From an uncultured Myxococcales bacterium (GTDB lineage: Bacteria > Myxococcota_A > Polyangia > Fen-1088): a DNA stretch of 46,135 nucleotides. Where the stretch lies: contig CAZPUH010000758.1 in NCBI GenBank assembly GCA_964589215.1, positions 1-46,135 of the forward strand, written 5' to 3'. The translations under genes and the position numbers were made by a program. Shown here piece by piece: positions 10,935-36,033 of this stretch; position 1 is the first letter of the stretch; the number at the start of each line of letters is the position of its first letter. The notes under the pieces are model-generated. The model searched no databases. It saw nothing but the letters and a program-made list of their open reading frames with translations, and was not told where the DNA came from.

Positions 10935-12491
10935 TCATCCCTCGACGCGAAAGTTCCGCATCATGCCCATGTCCTCGTGTTCGAGGTTGTGGCAGTGATA
11001 GAGGAAGAGGCCAGCGTGCCGCGCGAACCGAACGCGGATCCGCACCTGCTCGCCGGGTCTGAGAAGAAACGTGTCCTTCCAGCCGTCGTCGACGAGACCG
11101 TCGTCCATCGTCGCGGCCACGCTTCTCCACTGCGGAGCCACCGTTCGCTGCACGATCTGGAATTGCCCCCCGTGCACGTGGATCGGGTGAGCGGTCGTCA
11201 TCATCGCGCCCGGGTTCGAGAACTCCCAGTCCTCGGTCGCACCGAGCTTTATCCGCTCGTTCGCCGCGACCTCGGTCATGTCGAACGGCTCGCCGTTCAA
11301 TACCCAGCGCATCATCGCCATCGATACCGCGAACCGGCGTGGATTCTGGCGGTTGACCACCTCATCCGGTGAACGCCATTCGGGAAGCGACAGGTGCCGC
11401 GGAATCGGAAGGCGCGGCCCCTTGCCGCCAATGGCGAACCTGCAGATTCGAAGCGCCGCGCCATTTGCGGGCGAGCTGGATGATCCACCGCCTCCCATCA
11501 TGCCCATGCCCCCGCCCATCATCCCGCCACCAATCGTGAAGGCTCGGCTCTCTAGCCACACCGAGTCCCCGCCAGGAGCGGTTCCGAAGTCAGCCCACAG
11601 CTCGATGCGCTCGCCGGGCGCCAGGAGGACCGCCGGTCGTTCGACCGGTGCGGCGATCAGTCCACCGTCCGTGCCGATGACCCTCATCGGGCTCCCGTCG
11701 CTCCAGGCAAGCTTGTAGATCCGGGCATTCGAGCCGTTCAGGAGCCGCAGGCGATATGTGCCCGCCTTGACGTCCAACGACGCGTCGGCGCGCCCGTTGA
11801 CCAGGATGCGGTCTCCGAGAAAACCCAGCATCTGGTTCGGCGCGTAGACGAGCTGGCCGTCGCCGTCGAGGATCCGATCTTGAATGACGAGGGGAAGATC
11901 GAACTCCGGCGCCGGTAGCCCCCGCGCGACGTCGTCCTCGTCGGCCACGAGGAAGAACCCGGCCAACCCCGCATGGACTTGATAGCCGGTACGTCCCTCC
12001 GGGTGCGGATGGTACCAGTACGTTCCAGGGCGATTTTCGACCTTGAAGTCATAGCGGCGCGTGGTGCGGCTCGCGATCGCAAAGCGGGGATGGCCGTCGT
12101 TCTCCTCGGATACGTCGAGCCCGTGCCAGTGGACGACCGAGGCTTCATCGAGCGCGTTCTCGAAATTCACGCGCACCCGCTGGCCACGCCGCAGGCGGAA
12201 GGTCGGGCCGAGGTAGCTCGCGTCACTGCCGTCGAAGGTCCCGGGCGAACCTGCCAGTCGTTTGCCCTCGAACCGGAGGACGGTGGTGCTCCGGCCCGAG
12301 CCGTCGACGGCCACCCGCGCGCGGGTACTCTTCAGTGAGACCTCGAGATCCGGTTGGGTCGTGGCTTCTGAAGCTGCGAGCGGAGCTGCGGCGGGTGCAC
12401 GACGGCTGCATCCCGCGGACAGCAACAGACCGCCGGCGATTCCAGCTTCTAGGACTTGTCGTCTTGAGGGCTTCGTAGACATCGAGGTCAT
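10935..12491 (-). CDS. multicopper oxidase (CueO-like) with Tat signal and a Met/Gly-rich insert
   Basis: Tat motif SRRQVLEAG. Copper-site motifs HWHGL, WYHPH, HPIHVHG and YHCHNLEHEDMGMM. The insert is GGGMMGGGMGMMGGGG. Confidence 0.9.
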   Translation of the reverse strand: MTSMSTKPSRRQVLEAGIAGGLLLSAGCSRRAPAAAPLAASEATTQPDLEVSLKSTRARVAVDGSGRSTTVLRFEGKRLAGSPGTFDGSDASYLGPTFRLRRGQRVRVNFENALDEASVVHWHGLDVSEENDGHPRFAIASRTTRRYDFKVENRPGTYWYHPHPEGRTGYQVHAGLAGFFLVADEDDVARGLPAPEFDLPLVIQDRILDGDGQLVYAPNQMLGFLGDRILVNGRADASLDVKAGTYRLRLLNGSNARIYKLAWSDGSPMRVIGTDGGLIAAPVERPAVLLAPGERIELWADFGTAPGGDSVWLESRAFTIGGGMMGGGMGMMGGGGSSSSPANGAALRICRFAIGGKGPRLPIPRHLSLPEWRSPDEVVNRQNPRRFAVSMAMMRWVLNGEPFDMTEVAANERIKLGATEDWEFSNPGAMMTTAHPIHVHGGQFQIVQRTVAPQWRSVAATMDDGLVDDGWKDTFLLRPGEQVRIRVRFARHAGLFLYHCHNLEHEDMGMMRNFRVEG

Positions 12492-12584
12492 CCTCTCTCG
12501 CCCGTGCAGAACTCTACGGGACCTGGCGCGCGCTGCGAACCCTTTCCCGTCTGACTGGCTCTCACCGGCGAAGGTGATGAAGTC

Positions 12585-13016
12585 ATGAACGCCATCGTCG
12601 AGTCACTCGGTAAGGTCGCGAGCCGCGTCAGGATGGGCGAGCACGAGCTCGTCTTCGACCAGCCACAGTCCGTCCCCGGAGGTGAGGATCGCGGCCCCTC
12701 CCCGCTCGACGCACTGGTTGCTTCGGTCGCAGCCTGCGCGCACTACTTCGCAGCCGCCTACCTCCACGGCCGTGGCCTCTCGACCGAGGGGCTGACCGTC
12801 GAGGTCCAGTCGGAGAAAGATCGGGTGCCGGTGTCCAGGATCGGTCGCCTGTCGATGAAGGTGCAGCTTCCACCCGGTCTCTCCGACCGACAGTTGACCG
12901 GGGTCGAGCGGGCCGTGAAGAGCTGCCCTGCGTACGGCACCCTGCTGCACCCGCCGTCGGTCGAGGTTGCCGTCGAGCCGACTGTGCCTCCGGTACCCGA
13001 GGCACAGTCGGCCTAA
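12585..13016 (+). CDS. OsmC/Ohr-family peroxiredoxin-like protein
   Basis: 143 aa with the two conserved Cys contexts of the OsmC fold (VASVAACAHYF and AVKSCPAYGTL). Confidence 0.75.
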   Translation: MNAIVESLGKVASRVRMGEHELVFDQPQSVPGGEDRGPSPLDALVASVAACAHYFAAAYLHGRGLSTEGLTVEVQSEKDRVPVSRIGRLSMKVQLPPGLSDRQLTGVERAVKSCPAYGTLLHPPSVEVAVEPTVPPVPEAQSA

Positions 13017-13052
13017 ACCCCAGGCTTGTGCCAGTCGGGTAGCATCTAAGCC

Positions 13053-13892
13053 GTGAACGAAACGGAGTCGTCCGACGAGCGCCTCCTCGCGGCCGCGCGC
13101 GCCGGGGATAGAGCCGCTCTCGAGACGCTGCTTGAGCGTCACCAGGAACAGGTCTACAGGTTCGGCATGAAGATGTGCCGGGATCCGGAGGACGCGAAGG
13201 ATGTCCTCCAGGACACCCTGCTCGCGATGGCGCGTAGCGTCCGGGACTTCCGCGGCGCGTCCTCGATCTCGACGTGGCTCTACACGATCGCGCGGAGCTT
13301 CTGCATCAAGAAGCGGCGCCGGAGCAAGTTCGCCCCCGACGAGGAGCGCTCACTGGACACGGACGTGAAGGCTGAGGCGAAGCACCTCGCTGCTCCCGCG
13401 GTCGACGCGGATGAGGCGCTCGCCGGCAAGGAGGTAGAGCGGGCGCTCGAGCAGGCGATCGCGGCGCTCGACCCGATGTACCGCGAAGTTCTGCTCCTCC
13501 GGGACGTCGAGGGGCTGACCGCACCCGAGGTCGCCGAGGTGCTCGGAGTGACCCCGCAGGCCGTCAAGAGCCGACTCCACCGGGCCCGGCTATCGGTGCG
13601 GGAGCAGGTCGCGCCCATCCTCGGAATCGACCTCGACGCGCCGGCGGCTCCCGGCATTTGCCCCGACGTACTAACGATGTTTTCGCAGCACCTCGAGGAC
13701 GAGATCAGCGCGGACCTCTGCGCGGAAATGGAGCTGCACCTCGAGACTTGTGGGCGCTGTCGAGGCGCGTGCGACTCGCTCAAGCGCACCCTCGCGCTGT
13801 GTCGAACGTCGGGCCCGGCGGTCGAGGTCCCCACAGCGGTTCAGGTTTCAGTCAGGAAGGCCCTCCGAGCCTTCCTCGCCGACAACGCCTGA
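13053..13892 (+). CDS. ECF sigma-70 family factor fused to a C-terminal ZAS (zinc anti-sigma, RsrA-like) domain
   Basis: Sigma-2 region (LLERHQEQVYRFGMKMCRDPEDAKDVLQDTLLAM) and sigma-4 region (EVLLLRDVEGLTAPEVAEVLGVTPQAVKSRLHRAR). These are followed in the same ORF by C-x25-H-x3-C-x2-C (CPDV...ELHLETCGRC). Confidence 0.8.
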   Translation: MNETESSDERLLAAARAGDRAALETLLERHQEQVYRFGMKMCRDPEDAKDVLQDTLLAMARSVRDFRGASSISTWLYTIARSFCIKKRRRSKFAPDEERSLDTDVKAEAKHLAAPAVDADEALAGKEVERALEQAIAALDPMYREVLLLRDVEGLTAPEVAEVLGVTPQAVKSRLHRARLSVREQVAPILGIDLDAPAAPGICPDVLTMFSQHLEDEISADLCAEMELHLETCGRCRGACDSLKRTLALCRTSGPAVEVPTAVQVSVRKALRAFLADNA

Positions 13893-13935
13893 ATCCTTTA
13901 GGCGGCGCCTGGCTCTAACTTTTCAGGAGGCTGGA

Positions 13936-14328
13936 ATGGCGACCGTGCAGGTGACCGAAAAGACCTTTGATGCAACCGTGAAGAAGGGGATCGTCCTGCT
14001 GGATTTCTGGGCCGCTTGGTGCGGGCCGTGTCGCGCGTTCGGGCCCATCTTCGAGGCCGCGGCGGCGCGCCATGCGGACGTCGTATTTGGCAAGGTCGAC
14101 ACCGAAGCCGAGCCCGGTCTCGCAGCGGCGTTCGAGATCCGCGCGATTCCGACGCTGGCCGTGCTTCGCGACGGGGTGCTGCTCGGAGCGTTTCCCGGGA
14201 TGATGCCGGCGAAGGCGATCGACGAGCTGGTGGGCAAGGTGCAGGCGCTGGATATGAACGAGGTGCAGCGAAAGCTGGCGGAGGCCGAAGCTGCGGAGCC
14301 GCGAGCCGCCAAGGCAGGAGGCGCCTGA
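13936..14328 (+). CDS. trxA: thioredoxin
   Basis: WCGPC active site in FWAAWCGPCRAFGP, cis-Pro loop IRAIPTL, RBS-like CAGGAGG upstream. Confidence 0.9.
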   Translation: MATVQVTEKTFDATVKKGIVLLDFWAAWCGPCRAFGPIFEAAAARHADVVFGKVDTEAEPGLAAAFEIRAIPTLAVLRDGVLLGAFPGMMPAKAIDELVGKVQALDMNEVQRKLAEAEAAEPRAAKAGGA

Positions 14329-14516
14329 TGTGCCGGCGTATCGACTGCCCGAAGTGCGGGCGACCGAGCTTCGCCGGCTGCGGAATGCACGTCGAGCAGG
14401 TGCTCGGCAACGTCCCACCGGCCCAGCGCTGCCGGTGTCGGGAGGACCGGGCTACGGGCCCGACCGCGCCAGGCGCCGGCCCGCGCTCCTGGCTGCGCGG
14501 CCTACTCGGGAAGTGA
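14328..14516 (+). CDS. Cys-rich miniprotein (zinc-ribbon-like)
   Basis: 62 aa: MCRRIDCPKCGRPSFAGCGMHVEQVLGNVPPAQRCRC. Its start overlaps the thioredoxin stop (TGATG). Confidence 0.55.
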   Translation: MCRRIDCPKCGRPSFAGCGMHVEQVLGNVPPAQRCRCREDRATGPTAPGAGPRSWLRGLLGK

Positions 14517-14527
14517 GGAGAGCGGTC

Positions 14528-14920
14528 ATGACCACATTTGGAATTCGAAAGAACCTCCGCGCCTCGTACGACGAGGCGCTCGCCCGGGTGCCCGAGGCGC
14601 TCAAGGCGGAGGGCTTCGGTGTCCTCACCGAGATCGACATGCAGAGCACGCTGAAGCAGAAGCTCGGCGTCGCGTTCCGTCGCTACAAGATCCTCGGCGC
14701 CTGCAATCCGCCCTTTGCTCACGAGGCGCTCTCCGCGGACCTCGTCGCCGGGCTGCTATTGCCCTGCAACGTGGTCGTCTACGAGGGAGAGGACCGCCGG
14801 GCGGTCGTCATTGCCGTCGATCCGACACAGACCGTGACCGCGACCGGCAGCCGGGAGCTCGCGAAGATCGCCGAAACCGTCAAGGAGAAGCTCACGCGCG
14901 CGATCGCCCGGCTCGAATAG
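14528..14920 (+). CDS. DUF302 domain protein
   Basis: 130 aa. The pattern EALKAEGFGVLTEIDMQSTLKQKLG..FRRYKILGACNPPFAHEAL is characteristic of DUF302. Confidence 0.7.
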   Translation: MTTFGIRKNLRASYDEALARVPEALKAEGFGVLTEIDMQSTLKQKLGVAFRRYKILGACNPPFAHEALSADLVAGLLLPCNVVVYEGEDRRAVVIAVDPTQTVTATGSRELAKIAETVKEKLTRAIARLE

Positions 14921-14938
14921 CAATGGCATCGGAACGGC

Positions 14939-15614
14939 GTGCCGAGCCGGCGGGTGCGCTCAGCCACAATCCCAAACCCCTTCCTCCGCGCCAGGCCCAA
15001 GCGACCGACCTTCTTCGATGGGCGACCTCGTCCTGCACTACTGGGAAGCCTGCTCCTGCATGATGTTCCTGGAGACTTCGTGGAAGTTGGATGCAACGCC
15101 GGATTTTCATCCGTGATCCTAAGATCGCTTCTCCGAGATCGTGGACGGGGTCGTGAGCTGGTTTGCTTCGACAGCTTCGAGGGACTTCCCGCCACCGTCG
15201 ACGCGAAGGACCAAGGTGCGTACGTCGCTGGCGAGATGACGGCCGGACGTCGTTGGTTCGAGGACAACTTTAAGGCCATCGGACTGGAGCTGCCGACGGT
15301 CCACCAAGGCTGGTTCGAGAAGACTTTGCCGACCGGACTGCCGCGCCAGATCTCCTTCGCGCTGATCGACGCTGACCTTTAACACGTCGACGCTCACGGC
15401 CCTGCAACACGTTTACCCTCGGCTTACTGGGAACGCCATATGCATGTTTGGGGTCTACTGCGACGAGCGCGTCCACGTGCCCTACACGCGGAATCTCAAA
15501 TATCTCAGCCCCGGGGTGACGGCGGCCGTGGACGAGTTTCTTGGAGACAAGCCCGAAGAGATGTCCGTCCTGTACTCCGGCGACTACACTAGCGGCTACT
15601 TCACAAAGAAGTGA
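14939..15614 (+). pseudogene. TylF/macrocin-O-methyltransferase-like class I SAM methyltransferase, frameshifted near 15378
   Basis: The N-terminal part, with VPGDFVEVGCNAGFSS ... FALIDADL, ends at TAA 15380-15382. The +1 frame continues NTSTLTALQHVYPRLTGNAICMFGVYCDE...GYFTKK to 15614, as expected for one contiguous TylF-like protein. Confidence 0.6.
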
Positions 15615-21166: not shown

Positions 21167-23548
21167 TCAGATTCGGGCCCGGCGGAGCCGCAGCGCGTTT
21201 CCGACCACCGAGACGGAGCTGAGACTCATCGCCGCCGCCGCGATCATGGGGTTCAGCAGGATCCCGAACCAAGGATAGAGGACGCCCGCCGCCAACGGAA
21301 CGCCCGCGGCGTTGTAGACGAAGGCGAAGAACAGGTTCTGCTTGATGTTCCCTAGCGTTTGACGGCTGATGCGGCGGGCTCGGGCGATCGCGCGGAGGTC
21401 GCCTTTCACGAGGGTGACGCCGGCGCTCTCCATCGCGACGTCAGTTCCGGTTCCCATCGCGATCCCGACCTGGGCCTGCGCGAGTGCCGGGGCGTCGTTG
21501 ATGCCGTCGCCCGCCATGGCGACCACGCGGCCTTCTCCCTGCAGGCGCTTCACCACGGTCGCCTTCTGATCCGGCAGCACCTCGGCGACCACCTCGTCGA
21601 TCTTCAGTTTCCGCGCGACCGCTTCGGCGGTCGTTCGACTGTCGCCAGTCAGCATGACGATGCGAACGCCCTCTTCGTGGAGCGCCCGCATCGCCTCGGG
21701 GGTGCTGTCCTTGACTGGGTCGGCCACGCCCAAAAGCCCCGCTGGGCGCCCGTCGACCACCACGAAGATCACCGTCTGGGCGTCCTGTCGGAGTTCCTCC
21801 GCTCGCGTGGCGAACGGCGTCGGATCGACGCCCAGGTCGGCGAGCAGAACGCGGTTGCCGACGGCGACGGCCCGACCCTCTACCGTCCCCTTCACCCCTT
21901 TGCCATTGATGGCTTCGAACCCCATTGCCGCGGGAATGGCAACACCGCGTTCCTCTGTTCCTTTGACGATCGCGGTCGCTAGCGGATGCTCGCTACCGCG
22001 CTCGAGGGCAGCTGCAAACCGCAAGAGATCCGTCTCCATGGTCCCGCCGATCGGCGTCAGGCTGACCAGCTTGGGCTTCCCTTCGGTGAGCGTTCCCGTC
22101 TTGTCGACCACCAGGGTGTCGACCTTACGCAGGACCTCGATCGCCTCCGCGTTCCGAAAGAGCACGCCCGTCGTCGCCCCACGGCCCATCGCGACCATGA
22201 TCGACATCGGCGTCGCGAGGCCGAGGGCGCACGGGCAGGCAATGATCAGCACGGCGACGGCGTTGATGAGCGCATGTGCGGCACGGGGCTCCGGCCCGAC
22301 CAGTGACCAGACGATGAACGTCACCACGGCAATGGCGATGACGACCGGCACGAAATAGCCGGCCACCACGTCGGCCAGCTTCTGGATGGGCGCGCGGCTG
22401 CGCTGGGCCTCGGCGACCATCGCCACGATGCGGGAGAGCAATGTGTCAGAGCCGACCTTCTCGGCCCGGATGACCAGGGTCCCGGAGGTGTTCAGTGTGG
22501 CACCGACCACCTTGGCGCCGATCTCCTTCTGGACGGGGATCGGCTCACCCGTCACCATCGACTCATCGACATGGCTCCGTCCTTCGGTCACGACGCCATC
22601 GACCGGAACCTTCTCGCCCGGCCGAACCCGGAGCAGATCGCCAACCTGCACAGCCTCGAGCGGCACGTCGGCCTCGCTGCCGTCGGCGTTGACGCGACGG
22701 GCGAGCTTGGGCGCAAGGCCGAGCAGCTTGCGGATGGCGGCACCGGTCGCGCTCCTTGCCCTGAGCTCCAGCACCTGACCGAGTAGGATGAGCGTGACGA
22801 TCACGCCCGCCGCCTCGAAGTAGACACCGACCTGGCCGTCGTGCTCCCGGAAAGACGACGGAAAGATGCCGGGCGCGACCGCAGCAATCACGCTGTACGA
22901 GAAGGCGACCGAAACGCCCAGGCCGATCAGCGTGAACATGTTGAGACTGCGGTGACGGACCGATTGGATTGCCCGAACGTAAAACGGCCACGCGGACCAT
23001 GTGCAGACGGGCGTGGCGAGCGCCAGCTCGACCCAGGTACGCAACCTCGGCGAGAGGATCTGCCCGAAACGCGCGCCCAGGATCAGCTCGCCCATAGCCA
23101 GCAGAACCAGCGGGGCCGTTAGGGCGGTGGCGGTCCAGAACCGACGCGACATGTCGGCCAGCTCCGGATTGTCGTGCGGCTCGGCGGTGATCGTCCGTGG
23201 CTCGAGCGCCATGCCGCATATTGGGCAGCTACCCGGCGCGTCGCGCACGATTTGCGGATGCATTGGGCAGGTCCACTCGACCTTGCCCGTTGGAGGTGGA
23301 GGTGGAGCGGGCTTGGGCGGCTCGGTACCGGGATCGACGAAGGCCCGAGGGTTCTGCTGGAACCGTTCGAGACACCGCGGGCCGCAGAAACGGTAGGTCT
23401 TTCCTGCATATTCGCTGTGGAGAGGCGCGTCCGCTGGCACGTTCATGCCGCAGACGGGGTCCTTCCCGAGCGGCTGTGTCGCAAGGGGAAGTCGTTTCGG
23501 GTTCCCCCCCGACGGTCGCGTTGGATGATCGTGTTGGTGGTGGTCCAT
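21167..23548 (-). CDS. copA: Cu(I)/Ag(I)-translocating P1B-type ATPase
   Basis: 793 aa. Motifs: CPC ([12 protein letters not shown]), DKTGTLT, TGES-equivalent [14 protein letters not shown] in [13 protein letters not shown] and MSLSS in TM6. The N-terminus has a His-rich start, a YHS/TRASH-like DPVCGMNV...YRFCGPRC and WTCPMHPQI...CPICGM. Confidence 0.92.
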
Positions 23549-28526: not shown

Positions 28527-29063
28527 TCACGCGCGCCGACAGGTGCAGTCCAGACAGCCGTGTTCCGAACAGGCGCCGCACACCTCTACGAGCCGCCGCC
28601 TCAGCGCCGCGCGGGCGCGGTGAAGGCGAACGGTCGCGTTGTTGGCCGTCAGCCCCCCTTCGTTCGCGACCTCGACGATCGGCCGTTCCTCCAGTTCCAC
28701 CGCCTTCACGATGTCGGCGTACTCGGGCTTGAGCCCGGGCAGGACGGCGCTCATGCAAGTGCAGAGATTCTGACGGAATTCCGGCTCGAAGGTCGGCTCC
28801 GCTTCCTTCGCGAGCTGTGCGTGGGCCTCGCTTTCCGTTCCCACCCGCCGGTGGTGGTCGATGATCGCGTTTCGGAGCAGCTGATAGAACCAGGCCACGA
28901 CGCTCCCGTCGTCTCGGACCTGGTCCAGCTTCGGGAGGCTCCTCGCGTACGCCTCCTGCAGGATGTCCTCGGCGACCGCCGCACTCTCGACCCGCGGTCG
29001 AAGGAAGTCGAGGAACCGCCGGTGGTTTTCGGCCAGGAGCCGCTCGCGGGATTGGACGGTCAT
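28527..29063 (-). CDS. CorE-like ECF sigma factor with a C-terminal Cys-rich domain
   Basis: 178 aa from the ATG at 29063. Sigma-2 region (VAEDILQEAYARS...VAWFYQLLRNAIIDHHRR), sigma-4 region (YADIVKAVELEERPIVEVANEGGLTANNATVRLHRAR), linker CTC, and C-terminal CGACSEHGCLDCTC. No separate anti-sigma gene is recognisable. Confidence 0.8.
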   Translation of the reverse strand: MTVQSRERLLAENHRRFLDFLRPRVESAAVAEDILQEAYARSLPKLDQVRDDGSVVAWFYQLLRNAIIDHHRRVGTESEAHAQLAKEAEPTFEPEFRQNLCTCMSAVLPGLKPEYADIVKAVELEERPIVEVANEGGLTANNATVRLHRARAALRRRLVEVCGACSEHGCLDCTCRRA

Positions 29064-29145
29064 CGCCCTTAGCTTGGCATGGGACGCAAGGACGGCGTGC
29101 CGAACCCTCGAACCCTTTTCGCCGCGGTTGGCTCTCACGGTCAAA

Positions 29146-29379
29146 ATGACCTCAGAGAATGCAATTCGCGCCCTGGCAGGGGCGCTGGTCCTCGCCGGCC
29201 TCGTCCTTTCGCGGCTGATCAACCCCTGGTGGTTACTTCTCACGGCTTTCGTGGGCGTGAACCTTCTGCAGTCCGCATTCACGAAGTTTTGCCCGGCGGA
29301 AATCGTCATGCGCCGCCTGGGATGGTTCACAGCGTGCACCACCACTGACCGGCCTGCGCGGCACACCGAGGGCAGCTAA
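29146..29379 (+). CDS. DUF2892 (YgaP-like) small membrane protein
   Basis: 77 aa: NAIRALAGALVLAGLVLSRL..WWLLLTAFVGVNLLQSAFTKFCPAE. Its stop abuts the MFP GTG start. Confidence 0.65.
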   Translation: MTSENAIRALAGALVLAGLVLSRLINPWWLLLTAFVGVNLLQSAFTKFCPAEIVMRRLGWFTACTTTDRPARHTEGS

Positions 29380-30420
29380 GTGCGCCAGCCGCGCCGCATC
29401 GCAGGGGGCCTGATGGCAGTCGCCGCCGTGGCCGTTTCGGCGTGCGGCTCGAAGCCGCCACGCGCGCCATCGGAGCCTCTGCCAACACGATCCGTGCGGA
29501 CCGAACGCGCCCGCCTGGACGCGAGCTCTTCGGGCGAAGCGGCCATCGGCACAGTCCGGGCGCGCAACTCGGCGGCCATATCTGCGACGGTGGTTGGCAA
29601 GGTCCGCGAGCTGAACGTGACACTCGGCCGCCGCGTGCGGGCGGGCGACGTTCTGGTTCGAATCTCGGCGGACGAAATCGGCGCCAAGCTGGACCAGACG
29701 GAGGCGATGTATGCGCGCGCCAAGCTCGAGTTCGAACGAGCCAAAGGCCTGCTCGAGCGCGAGGCGATCCCGCGGGTGCAGTACGACGCCGCGGCGGCCG
29801 ACTTCCGGGTCGCCACGGCTAGGCGGGCCGAGGCCGGGGCGATGGCCGACCATACGGTGCTCCGCGCGCCGTTCGCTGGCGTCGTCAGCGCCAAGCTCGC
29901 CAACGTCGGGGATACGGCCATGCCCGGCCAGACGCTCGTCGTTCTCGAGGATCCGCGCGCGCTGCGGCTCGAGGCCACGGTGCCTGAGATCGCCGCGCAG
30001 GCGATGCGGACGGGGCAGACGGTGTCGGTCCTCATCGATGGGGCCCAGCGCCCGGTGACCGGCACCGTGGCAGAGATCAGCCCGGCGGCGGACCCGATGA
30101 GCCGCACGGTGCTGGTGAAGATCGAGCTACCGGCCGACCCGTCGATCCACCCCGGCTTACTCGGCCGGTTGCTGCTGCCCGCATCTCCTGGTCAGGCACG
30201 CTCGGTCGTGGTCCCCAGCGGAACTGTCGTGCGCCGCGGCCAGCTCGACGAGGTCTTCGTTGTCGACCGGGGACGGGCCCGCTTGCGGTTGGTCAAAACT
30301 GGACGTGTCAAAGGGGACGGCGCGACGGAGATCCTGTCCGGCCTCACCGAAGGCGAGACGGTGGTCATCTCCGACCTCGCGGAATTGGTGGACGGGCAAG
30401 CTGTGGAGGCGCGCCTGTGA
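29380..30420 (+). CDS. RND efflux periplasmic adaptor (MFP) lipoprotein
   Basis: Lipobox AVAVSACG. Lipoyl/barrel motifs ([37 protein letters not shown]). GTGA overlap with the RND gene. Confidence 0.85.
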
Positions 30421-33400
30421 GTCGCGAGCCGCATCGCCAGGGCATCGCGGGCCGGATCGCGCGCGCGTTCATCGATTCGAAGCTGACGCCGCTCTTCATC
30501 GTCACCTCCGTCCTCCTGGGTCTGGTGGCCGTTCTTGCACTTCCGCGCGAGGAGGAACCGCAGATCAAGGTTCCCATGGTCGACGTGTCACTTTCCATGC
30601 CCGGCGCGACTGCCGAGGAGGTCGAGAGCCGTGTCTCCGCTCCCGTCGAGCGGTTGCTCTGGGAGATTCCAGGTGTCGAGTATGTCTACAGCACGAGCCA
30701 GCCGGGCCGTTCCCTGACGATCGTCCGGTTCAAGGTCGGCGAGGACGTGGAGAGGTCGCTGGTGAAGCTCCACCAGAAGCTCGACGCCAACGCCGATCGC
30801 ATTCCGCCGGGCGTGTCGCCCCCGCTCATCAAGGCGCGCTCCATCGACGACGTGCCGATCCTCGCGCTCACCTTCCACTCGCGCAATTACGACCACCTGG
30901 CCCTGCGCCGCATCGCCGCCCAGGTCGACGCCGAGATCAAACGGGTCCCCGAGGTGTCGGAGGCGACCCTCATCGGCGGCCTGCGGCGTCAGGTCCGCGC
31001 TCGGCTCGATCCCGCGGCGCTCGCGGCCCGGTCGCTGGCAGCGACCAACGTCACCCGCGTGCTGGCGCAGGCGAACAGTCAGGCCTCGGTCGGATCCCTC
31101 ACGCTCGCGGACCAGGACGTTCTGGTGCAGACGGGCGCCTTCTTCACAAGCGCCGAGGATGTCGGGACGGCCGTCGTCGGCGTCTACCAGGGCGCCCCCG
31201 TCCATCTCCGCGATGTCGCCAAGATCGCCGACGAAGCCGAGGAACCGAGCCAGTACGTGTTCTTTGGCAAAGGCGCGGCGACTTCGGGTACCGCCGACGA
31301 GGAGCCCGCCGTCACTCTGTCGATCGCCAAGCGCCCAGGAACCAACGCGATCAAGGTGGCGGACGCTGTCCTCGAACGGCTCGATCGCATGCGGCCAACC
31401 GCGCTCCCGGGTGATGTGTCGATCTCCATCACCCGTCACTACGGCGCGACCGCCGCGGAGAAGTCGAACGAGCTTCTTCTGCACATGGGGATCGCCGTGG
31501 TCAGCGTCTCCCTGCTCATCCTGTTCATGCTCGGGTGGCGCGAGTCCCTGGTGGTCGCCATCGCCATCCCGGCGACCCTCGCGCTGACGCTGCTCGTTTT
31601 CTACCTCGGCGGCTACACGCTCAACCGGATCACGCTGTTCGCCTTGATCTTCTCGATCGGCATCCTGGTGGACGACGCGATCGTCGTCGTCGAGAACGTC
31701 GTTCGGCACCGCGATCTGCCAGAGAACCGAGGACGTTCACTCAAGGAGGTCGCCGTCCATGCCGTCGCCGAGGTCGGCAACCCGACGATATTGGCCACGC
31801 TCGCGGTGATGGCCGCCGTCTTACCAATGGCGTTCGTGGGCGGACTGATGGGGCCGTACATGCGCCCGATTCCGATTGGCTCGTCCGCCGCGATGGCGTT
31901 CTCGCTGATGGTCGCGTTCGTGGTGACTCCCTGGGCGGCGGCGCGCCTGCTGAAGCGCTCGCGCGCAACTGGCGACGGTGGCCGCGGCGGTCATCGGACC
32001 GGGCGAGAAGACTTCGGTACCCGCGCATACCGCCGGGTGATGGCGCGTCTGGTGGGGCGTGCGTGGTGGCGCTGGGGCTTCCTCGGCCTCATTGCGGCCC
32101 TTCTGGTGGCTGCGATCTCCCTCGTTCCGGTGGGCGCCGCCCGCGTGAAGATGCTCCCCTACGACAACAAGAGCGAGTTTCAGGTGATCCTGAACATGCC
32201 CGAGGGGAGCTCGCTCGAGCGCACGGCCGCCGCCGCGCGAGACATCGCGGATGCGATCCGCGGCGAGCGTGAGGTCACCGACTATCAGACTTACGTCGGC
32301 ATCGCCTCGCCGTTCAACTTCAACGGCCTGGTCCGCCATTACTATCTGCGCCAAGGGCCCAGCGTCGCCGACATTCAGGTGAACCTCCTGCCGAAGGGCG
32401 ACCGGGACGCCCAGAGCCACGACATCGCCAAGCGCATCCGACCGGCCGTCGCGGCGATCGCGGCCCGCTACGGCGCGCGGGTGGCGGTGGCCGAGGTGCC
32501 ACCGGGGCCGCCCGTGCTGCAGACCCTGGTCGCGGAGGTCTACGCCCCGGACGCCCCTTCTCGGCAGCGGCTTGCACGCGCGATGCGCGACATCTTCCAG
32601 AAGACGCCAGGAGTGGTCGACGTCGACTGGTACGTCGAGGATCCGCACCCCAAGCAGCGGCTGGTCGTCGACAAGGAGAAGGCCGCCCTGCACGGCATCG
32701 GGGCGGACACCATCGCGGCTACCCTGGAGATCGCTGTGGGCGGCCGCCCGGCGGGCCTGCTTCACGTCCCGCGCGAACAAGAGGACGTCGAGATCATGCT
32801 CGACGTCCCCCGCACCCTGCGCACGTCGGTGGCGGACCTGCTCGCTCTTCGCGTGCCGGACGCCAGCGGCCACACGCTGGTGCCGCTGGGCGAGCTCGTC
32901 CGCGTCGAACAGACGACGGAAGACCAGAGCATCTATCACAAGAACCTGCTACCGGTCGTCTATGTGACCGCCGACGTCGCGGGTGGCGCGGAGAGCTCCG
33001 CCTACTCCGTACTCGCCATGAACCGGGCCGTGGCGGCGCTGGATGCCCAGGACTTCGGAGGCGCGAGCGGCAAGCTCGGCGTCTACAATTCCGAGCAACC
33101 GAAGAGCGACCTCGCTCCGGCGATCAAGTGGGACGGCGAGTGGCACATCACGCTCGAGGTGTTCCGTGACCTCGGCGCCGCCTTCGCCGTGGTGCTGGTG
33201 CTCATCTACGTGCTGCTCGTGGGCTGGTTCCGGTCGTTTGCCACGCCGCTCGTCGTGATGGCGGCCATCCCGTTCTCGCTCGTGGGGATCCTGCCGGCAC
33301 ACGCGGCGATGGGCGCCTTCTTCACGGCGACCTCCATGATTGGATTCATGGCCGGGGCCGGGATTGTCGTTCGCAATTCGATCATCCTCGTCGATTTCAT

Positions 33401-33746
33401 CGAGGCCCGCCTCGGTGAAGGTATGCCGCTCGACGCGGCGGTCGTCGATGCCGGCGCTGTCCGCTTCCGCCCGATGCTGCTGACCGCTCTGGCGGTCGTC
33501 GCCGGCGCCTCGGTCATACTGTTCGACCCGATCTTCCAGGGTCTGGCCCTCTCGCTCATGGCTGGCGAACTCGCGTCGCTCTTCATCAGCCGCATGGCCG
33601 TACCCGTTCTCTACTCGATGCTGGCACGACGAAGAACGGCGCAGAGCACCGCGCCAGTCGTCGCGAAGCTCGCCCTGACTGGCCTCCCTGCGGAGCTAGG
33701 GCCTGCACACGGGCCCCGACCTCTATCCGAGGGCGGCGTCTCGTAG
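30417..33746 (+). CDS. RND transporter permease, AcrB-like (HAE-type TM4 motif)
   Basis: 1109 aa. TM4 reads [20 protein letters not shown], the AcrB-like [10 protein letters not shown] form rather than the DFG-DGA-VEN or CusA forms. It has 12-TM architecture with two large loops. Confidence 0.85.
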
Positions 33747-35757: not shown

Positions 35758-36033
35758 GTGAATGCACGCGACAAGGCTGACGTCAGCGCCAGGCTGAAAC
35801 GAATTGCCGGACAGATCGCCGGTATCCATCGGATGCTGGACGAGGATCGGTCGCTGCTCGACGTCCTCACTCAGTTGAGCGCCGCTCGCGCCGCGATCGC
35901 GAGCGCGTCACATATCGTTCTCGCCTCCCACGTCGAGGAGCGAGCGACCGAAGCTCTTGAGAGTCCGAGCGTCCGAGAACGTCGCGAGCTCGTGACCGAG
36001 ATCGTGCGCCTCCTGGAGAAGCGAGACCTGTGA
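35758..36033 (+). CDS. CsoR/RcnR/FrmR-family (DUF156) transcriptional repressor, cysteine-free variant
   Basis: 91 aa with a GTG start after AAGGCGG. The family pattern is RLKRIAGQIAGIHRMLDEDRSLLDVLTQLSAARAAIASASHIVLASHVEE. There is no Cys anywhere in the protein. Confidence 0.8.
   Translation: MNARDKADVSARLKRIAGQIAGIHRMLDEDRSLLDVLTQLSAARAAIASASHIVLASHVEERATEALESPSVRERRELVTEIVRLLEKRDL

Follow-up and report, generated by a model that had tools for sequence, protein, structure and literature searches.

An ECF sigma factor fused to a soluble ZAS anti-sigma domain in Myxococcota, a predicted one-component thiol switch

Can a sigma factor carry its own inhibitor, and can the same chain also sense the stress to which it responds? 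Sigma factors of extracytoplasmic function (ECF) that have built-in regulatory extensions are sought as single-protein orthogonal genetic switches, and they constitute a largely unexplored part of bacterial signalling. The question is raised here by a gene on a contig of an uncultured Myxococcales bacterium (CAZPUH010000758.1, assembly GCA_964589215.1), of which the whole stretch of 46,135 nt, with a G+C content of 67%, is called the window below. The gene (13053..13892, + strand, GTG start) encodes 279 amino acids (aa), in which an ECF sigma factor is followed by an anti-sigma domain of the zinc-motif type (ZAS). The first-pass annotation of the window had described it as a single-polypeptide fusion of the two, with a redox sensor of RsrA type set in a Cu/Cd-rich context. 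Based on the analyses below, we consider it reasonably probable that the protein is an auto-inhibited, thiol-switched, one-component cytoplasmic ECF sigma factor. The family to which it belongs probably switches on thioredoxin and sulfur/thiol-stress genes upon attack on its cysteines.

The open reading frame (ORF), the Pfam domains and the cysteine motif all bear out the fusion. The ORF cannot be extended in the 5' direction, since an in-frame TAA sits 6 nt ahead of the GTG. Its sigma-2 domain (residues 26–92, 13128..13328, +; Pfam Sigma70_r2, 58 bits) contains two cysteines, C42 (13176-13178, +) and C84 (13302-13304, +). The sigma-4 domain (residues 130–185, 13440..13607, +) is matched by Sigma70_r4_2 (residues 130–180, 64 bits) and Sigma70_r4, and is modelled by AlphaFold2 with a predicted local distance difference test score (pLDDT) above 90. 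Then comes a tether of ~17 aa (residues 186–202, 13608..13658, +), delimited by the alignment and by the secondary structure of the model, where it is predicted as coil; up to the first ZAS cysteine it is poorly conserved and differs in length between the aligned homologues. The remainder is a soluble class-I ZAS anti-sigma domain (residues 203–279, 13659..13889, +) with four predicted helices, in which Pfam zf-HC2 matches residues 203–237 at 28.9 bits (gathering score 22.2, E 1.2e-6). The assignment of the sigma part to the ECF factors (group 4) is clear: Sigma70_r2, Sigma70_r4_2 and Sigma70_ECF match without any match to region 3 or 1, the score with NCBIfam TIGR02937 (sigma70-ECF) is 108 bits, where 42.9 would suffice, and the best solved relatives are ECF sigma factors. 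No specific NCBIfam equivalog was matched by the 279-aa protein.

The ZAS motif reads C203-x25-H229-x3-C233-x2-C236, that is, an HxxxCxxC element with the fourth ligand ~25 residues upstream. As annotated at first, this spacing equals that of C11/H37/C41/C44 in RsrA (numbering of PMC3177212). In addition to the four ligands, the protein has C223, C240 and C250 in the extension and the two cysteines of sigma-2. The chain ends 43 residues past the motif, and the whole extension amounts to ~90 aa. We have also searched for a transmembrane segment by hydropathy and have found none in any of 53 fused proteins: averaged over 19 residues, hydropathy peaks at 1.10 in the window protein and stays under 1.6 in each of the 53 homologues.

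The frame is continuous across the junction of the two parts. Contigs from four independent public soil-metagenome runs agree with the window base for base over 12900-14600, with zero substitutions or indels; one of them covers the entire fused ORF and three others bridge the sigma-4/ZAS junction, and the identical 279-aa protein has been called on two further contigs. The first reading had asked for a check on a missed stop or frameshift, and none is present. It had also stated that a separate anti-sigma gene is lacking, which agrees with our Pfam scan of the neighbouring products between about 6.2 and 23.5 kb, where no anti-sigma factor was found.

The fusion is a property of a family. More than 100 protein clusters at 77–88% identity, all of 277–280 aa, have the fused architecture. 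When only the last 92 residues were searched against 1.84 billion cluster representatives (50% identity) at E <1e-3, 431 clusters were obtained, and most full-length matches are ~260–300 aa long, with the match at the C-terminus and a sigma part in the same protein. In a scan of one genome per species, the fused gene was found in 52 loci. Myxococcota predominate (Sorangium, Corallococcus, Archangium, Anaeromyxobacter, Polyangia and Nannocystaceae), and the gene also occurs in some Vicinamibacterales/Acidobacteria and Bdellovibrionales. Cultured Myxococcaceae carry it too, including Myxococcus xanthus DK1622, where the protein (ABF87529.1) is annotated merely as a sigma-70 family RNA polymerase sigma factor. 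For the conservation of Cys and His we have used 53 fused homologues, 51 of them from separate species-level genomes, with identities down to ~40%. Nine such residues are invariant in 53/53: the four ZAS ligands, for which conservation in orthologs had been proposed as a check, together with C223, C240, C250, C42 and C84.

Under the name 'Comamonas sp. JC664', a 665-kb contig has been deposited that encodes a protein with over 90% identity to the Myxococcus orthologue; this seems to reflect mislabelling or contamination of the assembly and not a true copy in a betaproteobacterium.

Where does the fused gene come from? Its nearest relatives without the extension are found in Nitrospira, Methylomirabilota, Ignavibacteria/Melioribacteraceae and Thermoleophilia. 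These non-fused sigma genes encode ~186–216 aa, and only a few bases behind each of them comes a second gene, for a soluble ZAS protein of 77–112 aa, with the same C...C-x5-H-x3-C-x2-C pattern as the fused domain. The sigma halves are 36–48% identical to the fused ones and mostly have both C42 and C84; the ZAS partners have all of the C, C, H, C, C residues and, in most cases, an equivalent of C250. In a profile-profile comparison by hhalign, the fused domain and the free-standing proteins align over 77 columns (probability 99.3%, E 2.7e-20). Owing to this homology with proteins encoded beside non-fused sigma factors, the C-terminal domain can be regarded as a bona fide anti-sigma module that has become covalently joined, and the sequence comparison indicates that the fused gene arose by fusion of a sigma gene and an anti-sigma gene. 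The two arrangements differ in more than the gene boundary. The free-standing ZAS proteins have no equivalent of C240, they bear a basic, His-rich N-terminal tail where the fused proteins have the tether, and the promoter motif described below occurs in none of their loci (0/28).

Within that N-terminal tail, a conserved HxHxxG(x)C stretch lies just ahead of the first ligand cysteine. It has no counterpart in the fused proteins and may be a site for an additional metal.

What kind of anti-sigma domain has been joined? By sequence, the closest solved domain is that of RsiW, with an E-value of 8e-4 in phmmer and of 1e-8 when the family profile is run against the PDB sequences. The same profile finds RslA significantly (0.0086), and next in rank are RsrA (0.095) and DdvA (0.58), neither of them significant; the four matches all belong to the class-I ZAS domains. 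Both AlphaFold2 models, of the full-length protein and of the isolated domain, predict four helices in the C-terminal domain, the number of the class-I fold, which is a three-helix bundle with an added helix 4; according to PMC7406223, sigma-4 is contacted by helix 1 and sigma-2 by helix 4. In the full-length model, the sigma core is good and the C-terminal domain reaches pLDDT 64–81. A Foldseek search with this model returned sigma chains only. The arrangement of sigma-2 and sigma-4 in it has a root-mean-square deviation of 11–15 Å to ECF structures bound by an anti-sigma factor, compared with 24–28 Å to those bound to RNA polymerase, and the modelled placement thus weakly supports an inhibited state.

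The label 'RsrA-type' given at first is therefore only partly apt. The ligand spacing stands, as do an equivalent of RsrA C31 (C223) and a small, soluble domain. On the other hand, the residues that flank HxxxCxxC and determine the redox response of RsrA, E39, E40, L45 and E46 (PMC3177212; an acidic pair ahead of the first motif cysteine, then a hydrophobic and a charged residue behind the second), are missing here, and the closest solved domain is RsiW. The published flanks are LETCEKCRK in the redox-insensitive RsiW and FEECSPCLE in RsrA (PMC3177212). The window protein has LETC-GR-C-RG, and the flanks are not conserved across the fused family.

Which genes would such a sigma factor switch on? 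In the upstream regions we have found, by eye, a candidate promoter GAAYCCTTT-N11-GGCTCTCAC, of which the window holds three exact copies versus 0 expected. The first (12537..12565, +; GAACCCTTT-N11-GGCTCTCAC) ends 19 nt before the ATG of an OsmC-like gene of the thiol peroxidase family (12585..13016, +; Pfam OsmC, 52.7 bits), which itself lies 36 nt 5' of the sigma gene. Transcription of osmC probably starts here and extends by read-through into the sigma gene, which would amount to autoregulation. The second (13891..13919, +; GAATCCTTT-N11-GGCTCTAAC) lies partly over the stop codon of the sigma gene (TGA, 13890-13892), and 16 nt separate its end from the ATG of a thioredoxin gene with a WCGPC active site (13936..14328, +; Pfam Thioredoxin, 82.5 bits). 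The third (29110..29138, +; again GAACCCTTT-N11-GGCTCTCAC) ends 7 nt before the ATG of a gene for a YgaP-like TM (DUF2892-type) membrane protein (29146..29379, +; Pfam YgaP-like_TM). A scan of 12300-15200 for sigma-70 promoters and terminators found nothing.

The motif is not confined to the window. Loci fetched by protein similarity contain 39 copies where 0.07 are expected; positions left unconstrained in the search (TTT, T25, C26) are conserved too, and a purine-rich stretch follows. It is present at 24/52 fused loci versus 0/28 non-fused loci. When metagenome contigs were scanned independently with the motif alone, 80 loci were found, and the fused sigma gene is encoded at 25 of them (16/37 if only loci of at least 4 kb are counted), while several more have the sigma part of a fused protein at the contig edge. 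When bipartite pairs of 4-mers were counted blindly over the 200 nt that lie upstream of each of the 52 sigma genes, the outcome was only GC-rich noise, at the level of the reverse-strand control; the true motif was later seen on the opposite strand, in front of neighbouring genes.

In the two sets of loci, thioredoxin leads among the genes that come first after the motif (10/36 and 18/82). Others are OsmC (3 and 10), metallo-beta-lactamase (MBL)-fold proteins (Lactamase_B; 5 and 4) and YgaP-like proteins (4 and 4), along with rhodanese, DsbD_TM, Redoxin/AhpC peroxiredoxins, a Pyr_redox_2 oxidoreductase, efflux parts of HlyD/OEP type and a small six-cysteine protein described below. The placement of the second promoter across the sigma stop codon recurs at many homologous loci, and osmC genes elsewhere are likewise preceded by the motif. 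The thioredoxin gene immediately downstream, noted in the first reading and confirmed here with a gap of 43 nt, is thus more closely tied to the sigma factor than that reading could see, since it has a conserved candidate promoter of its own and thioredoxin is the commonest gene behind the motif at other loci.

The six-cysteine protein is encoded directly after thioredoxin by a gene that we call cys62 (14328..14516, +; 62 aa), whose start overlaps the trx stop (TGATG) and which is a predicted member of the regulon. It belongs to no Pfam or NCBIfam family, has no solved relative and is named 'hypothetical protein' in the sources. Its own family, of ~60 aa, has the consensus MCRxVxCxKCGKPTxAGCGxHVEQVLGxVPxxxRCxC. 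The homologues adjoin the sigma gene in 14 loci and occur in about 10 motif-only loci, often directly behind the motif. In the window, cys62 is followed after 11 nt by a DUF302 gene (14528..14920, +; 85.8 bits). The predicted targets here are thus osmC with the sigma gene, trx-cys62-DUF302, and the ygaP-like gene. The last is probably transcribed with the genes for a membrane fusion protein (MFP; 29380-30420; Pfam HlyD_3/HlyD_D23) and a resistance-nodulation-division (RND) pump (30417-33746; Pfam ACR_tran), because the three directly abut and may form one operon.

A further element, CAGTCGGGTAGCAT (13032-13045, +), ends 8 nt before the GTG of the sigma gene, and the window has no second copy of it. 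Close homologues share it (two loci, and partly a third) even where the upstream gene is different. It may serve in ribosome binding or as the site of a regulator, or it may be a -10-like element (TAGCAT).

The neighbourhoods of the family tell a similar story. Among two genes on each side of 33 loci, we have observed enrichment of Lactamase_B (7), thioredoxin (5), Sulf_transp (5), DUF302 (4) and rhodanese (4), and also of TauE, YgaP-like and OsmC; these counts are lower bounds, since ORF calling in high-GC DNA needed a filter of GC1>GC2. In the subfamily of at least 65% identity, the order sigma-trx-cys62 is kept whatever the surroundings. The orthologue of M. xanthus DK1622 (CP000113.1, about 5.302-5.317 Mb) closes a sulfur-trafficking cluster of Sulf_transp, DUF6691, rhodanese, Metallophos/5_nucleotid_C and DsrE, in which we take the Metallophos/5_nucleotid_C protein to be SoxB-like.

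The same M. xanthus cluster also holds a separate, conventional pair of an ECF sigma factor and a zf-HC2 anti-sigma factor. In addition, contigs carrying a sigma protein of 79% identity that NCBI labels Tibeticola sp. show the sigma-trx-cys62 module next to a transposase, which hints at horizontal spread of the module.

Taken together, these observations point to the following mechanism. In the resting state the cysteines would be reduced and zinc bound, and the four-helix domain, on its ~17-residue tether, would fold back onto sigma-2 and sigma-4 of its own chain, keeping them away from core RNA polymerase. Thiol-reactive stress would then hit the cysteine cluster, that is, the four ZAS ligands with C223, C240 and C250, and probably also C42 and C84. 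Disulfide stress, reactive sulfur species or persulfides, peroxides and electrophiles are candidate signals; in the present metal-rich setting, thiophilic metals, for instance Cu(I) or Cd(II), may be added. Upon loss of zinc or formation of a disulfide, the domain would release the sigma factor, which would transcribe from promoters of the GAAYCCTTT type. The thioredoxin so induced may return the sensor to its reduced form and thereby complete a feedback loop like that of SigR-RsrA-Trx. Of this scheme, the architecture and its conservation, the descent from a gene pair, the solubility, and the motif with its linkage to the sigma gene and to thiol/sulfur genes are observed, whereas inhibition by the domain, zinc binding, the kind of signal, recognition of the motif and the feedback are predictions.

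Several points weigh against this mechanism. The flanks of HxxxCxxC resemble those of the redox-insensitive RsiW rather than RsrA, and the published redox determinants are not conserved. The placement of the domains in the full-length model is of moderate confidence only (predicted template modelling score, pTM, 0.54), and the model of the isolated domain (pLDDT 73.5) gave no significant match in Foldseek. The fusion alone does not imply auto-inhibition, since the Cys-rich C-terminal extension that CorE-like sigma factors possess is needed for activity and is not inhibitory (PMC3107203, PMC6851896). In the searchable literature we have found no description of, and no experiment on, a soluble ECF-ZAS fusion with this cysteine pattern, regulon or motif. 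That the fused sigma factor reads the motif is something we infer only from co-localisation, a standard argument for ECF target promoters, though short of proof. Moreover, the motif was not found at the M. xanthus locus; as it is missing there and at about half of the fused loci, the regulon is not the same throughout the family.

The strongest alternative takes up the comparison with CorE: the C-terminal cysteines and C42/C84 would build an inter-domain metal or iron-sulfur site, whose occupancy (by Cu, Cd, Zn or a cluster) is required for the active form, so that removal of the domain would abolish activity instead of releasing it. Two invariant cysteines in sigma-2 and three more beyond the four ZAS ligands would fit such a site, and in CorE/CorE2 the CxC outside the C-terminal domain cooperates with that domain, both being needed; in addition, the window is a Cu/Cd/Zn resistance island. 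Nevertheless we regard this activating sensor as unlikely, for the extension shares homology along its entire length with the free-standing anti-sigma proteins, and also with solved inhibitory domains, and the genes that neighbour the family or are linked to the motif are thiol and sulfur genes, not metal transporters.

Besides, the hallmarks of CorE are absent from the fused protein. CorE-like factors are defined by a CxC within the linker that joins sigma-2 to sigma-4 (PMC4937300) and by a C-terminal domain of about 20–38 aa with C-x2-C-x7-C-x-C (PMC3107203). The linker of the fused protein (residues 93–129) contains no cysteine and hence no CxC, and the C-terminal pattern is C-x2-C-x3-C-x9-C within an extension of ~90 aa. 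We had considered this class at first because multicopper oxidase and cation diffusion facilitator (CDF) genes adjoin; with both defining motifs missing, a CorE-like identity has been rejected. Actually, a genuine CorE-like sigma factor is already present elsewhere in the window (28527-29063, −; 178 aa), with a CxC (LCTCM) in the linker and a C-terminal CGACSEHGCLDCTC domain, which is C-x2-C-x7-C-x-C plus one extra cysteine. It divergently adjoins the ygaP-like, MFP and RND genes and is probably the metal-responsive sigma factor of the island. The Cu/Cd-rich context named in the first-pass annotation is true of the window, but the family as a whole sits among thiol and sulfur genes and its predicted targets are of the same kind; the metal link is specific to this window.

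Still less likely, in our estimation, is a domain that inhibits but is removed by regulated cytoplasmic proteolysis, its zinc site being purely structural as in RsiW. For ChrR, as well as for the fused groups ECF48/52/53, a proteolytic route has been suggested, and proteolysis is given as the expected route for fused anti-sigma-like extensions (PMC8999054). The RsiW-like HCC flanks and best solved match would agree with it, and the flexible tether would be within reach of proteases. However, regulated intramembrane proteolysis is impossible for a protein with no membrane anchor, and no protease gene is conserved nearby or among the motif-linked genes. A purely structural site also hardly explains five extra invariant cysteines, and the predicted regulon is typical of thiol-switch sensors. 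Finally, although two-gene arrangements do exist in closely related lineages, we dismiss as practically inconceivable the explanation that an ordinary sigma/anti-sigma pair only looks fused owing to an overlooked stop or frameshift, given four independent assemblies without differences, the identical protein on two other contigs, and an uninterrupted frame throughout the clusters and the 53 further homologues.

For the favoured thiol switch, the five invariant cysteines beyond the ZAS ligands, two of them in sigma-2, are the most interesting feature. They might form a second, family-specific cluster across both halves of the protein (C42 and C84 with C223, C240 and C250) that is part of the sensor, either as a second metal or iron-sulfur site or as an inter-domain disulfide/persulfide relay. 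This idea arises from the co-occurrence of the residues in the split pairs: the C250 equivalent is kept in 11/12 pairs whose sigma factor has C42/C84, compared with 0/2 pairs lacking them, which is suggestive only, because most of the split pairs are from related Nitrospira. We put it forward tentatively, and it is rather doubtful. If true, the promoter-recognising sigma-2 would itself be part of the redox/sulfur sensor, and it would be latched to the inhibitor chemically, not just sterically.

How does the fused protein compare with known systems? Among the closest are SigR-RsrA of Streptomyces coelicolor and SigH-RshA of Mycobacterium. They share with it a small soluble ZAS domain of identical ligand spacing, a cysteine at the position of RsrA C31 and thioredoxin as a target, established in their regulons and leading among the predicted targets of the regulon inferred here. 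Unlike in SigR-RsrA, a single polypeptide is used, E39, E40, L45 and E46 are absent, the similarity to RsrA is weak (E 0.095), additional invariant cysteines are found at 240 and 250 and at two sites in sigma-2, and the taxa are Myxococcota and others, not Actinobacteria. The predicted promoter is also unlike the GGAAT-N18-GTT type of SigR-RsrA. With SigW-RsiW of Bacillus subtilis, the shared features are the CHCC zinc motif and a nearly identical HLETCxxCR core. RsiW is a membrane protein with a structural zinc site, and regulated intramembrane proteolysis frees the sigma factor from it (PMC7406223); the present protein has no membrane segment and is fused to its own sigma factor.

Fused anti-sigma-like extensions at the C-terminus are a known theme, represented by IutY and by the membrane-anchored groups ECF48, ECF52 and ECF53 (e.g. 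SCO4117), of which the three groups also contain a zinc-finger/ZAS module (PMC8999054). The soluble ECF-ZAS fusion is a variant of this theme. In ECF48/52/53, which are actinobacterial, the extensions reach up to ~400 residues and include extracytoplasmic parts as well as a transmembrane helix or two, and they are expected to be freed by proteolysis; here the extension has ~90 residues and is predicted to be cytoplasmic, without the transmembrane helix after the zinc finger and the long extracytoplasmic part that characterise those groups. CorE and CorE2 of M. xanthus (ECF44, now in ECF238) resemble the fused protein as ECF factors of Myxococcota with a Cys-rich C-terminal extension and without a separate anti-sigma gene, and the fused gene of the window lies in a metal-resistance setting. 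They differ in that the fused protein has a full anti-sigma domain of four predicted helices.

As M. xanthus DK1622 carries a member, the fused family is very probably numbered already in the ECF classification 2.0. Fifteen extension-bearing groups are without a known mechanism (PMC8999054). ECF220 and ECF276, which have Sorangium representatives and unexplained extensions, are candidate groups, and ECF216, with an unexplained extension in Myxococcota, is a further one; all three are unconfirmed, and the accessions of the Sorangium and Myxococcus homologues matched none of the representatives named in PMC8999054.

If the proposed mechanism is true, the protein would be the simplest possible form of the SigR-RsrA thiol switch: a single soluble chain of 279 residues would act as sensor, as inhibitor and as transcription factor. 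It would also point to a sigma-factor route for sulfur/thiol-stress sensing in Myxococcota; elsewhere, repressors such as CstR, SqrR and BigR are known for this task. If it is an ordinary tethered anti-sigma domain, it makes an incremental addition to a known theme. Testable handles are available in either case: nine invariant residues, natural split versions, a defined motif, an orthologue in the genetically tractable M. xanthus DK1622, and a predicted regulon of thioredoxin, OsmC, MBL-fold proteins, rhodanese and the new six-cysteine protein.

The window as a whole is a dense metal-resistance cluster. It contains three RND pumps with MFP and outer membrane efflux protein (OEP) partners. Two multicopper oxidases and a CDF transporter are further members, as are a CsoR/RcnR-type repressor (35758-36033) and a P1B-ATPase (21167-23548, −) that has YHS and HMBD domains. 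A phage-type integrase (250-1410, +) lies at one end of the cluster, which suggests an integrative island. Behind the DUF302 gene, a TylF-type O-methyltransferase gene is apparently broken into two ORFs (14939-15382 and 15444-15614, +), of which the first matches only positions 87–203 of the 264 in the profile; it is probably a pseudogene or a frameshifted gene, whose continuation is likely in the short second ORF.

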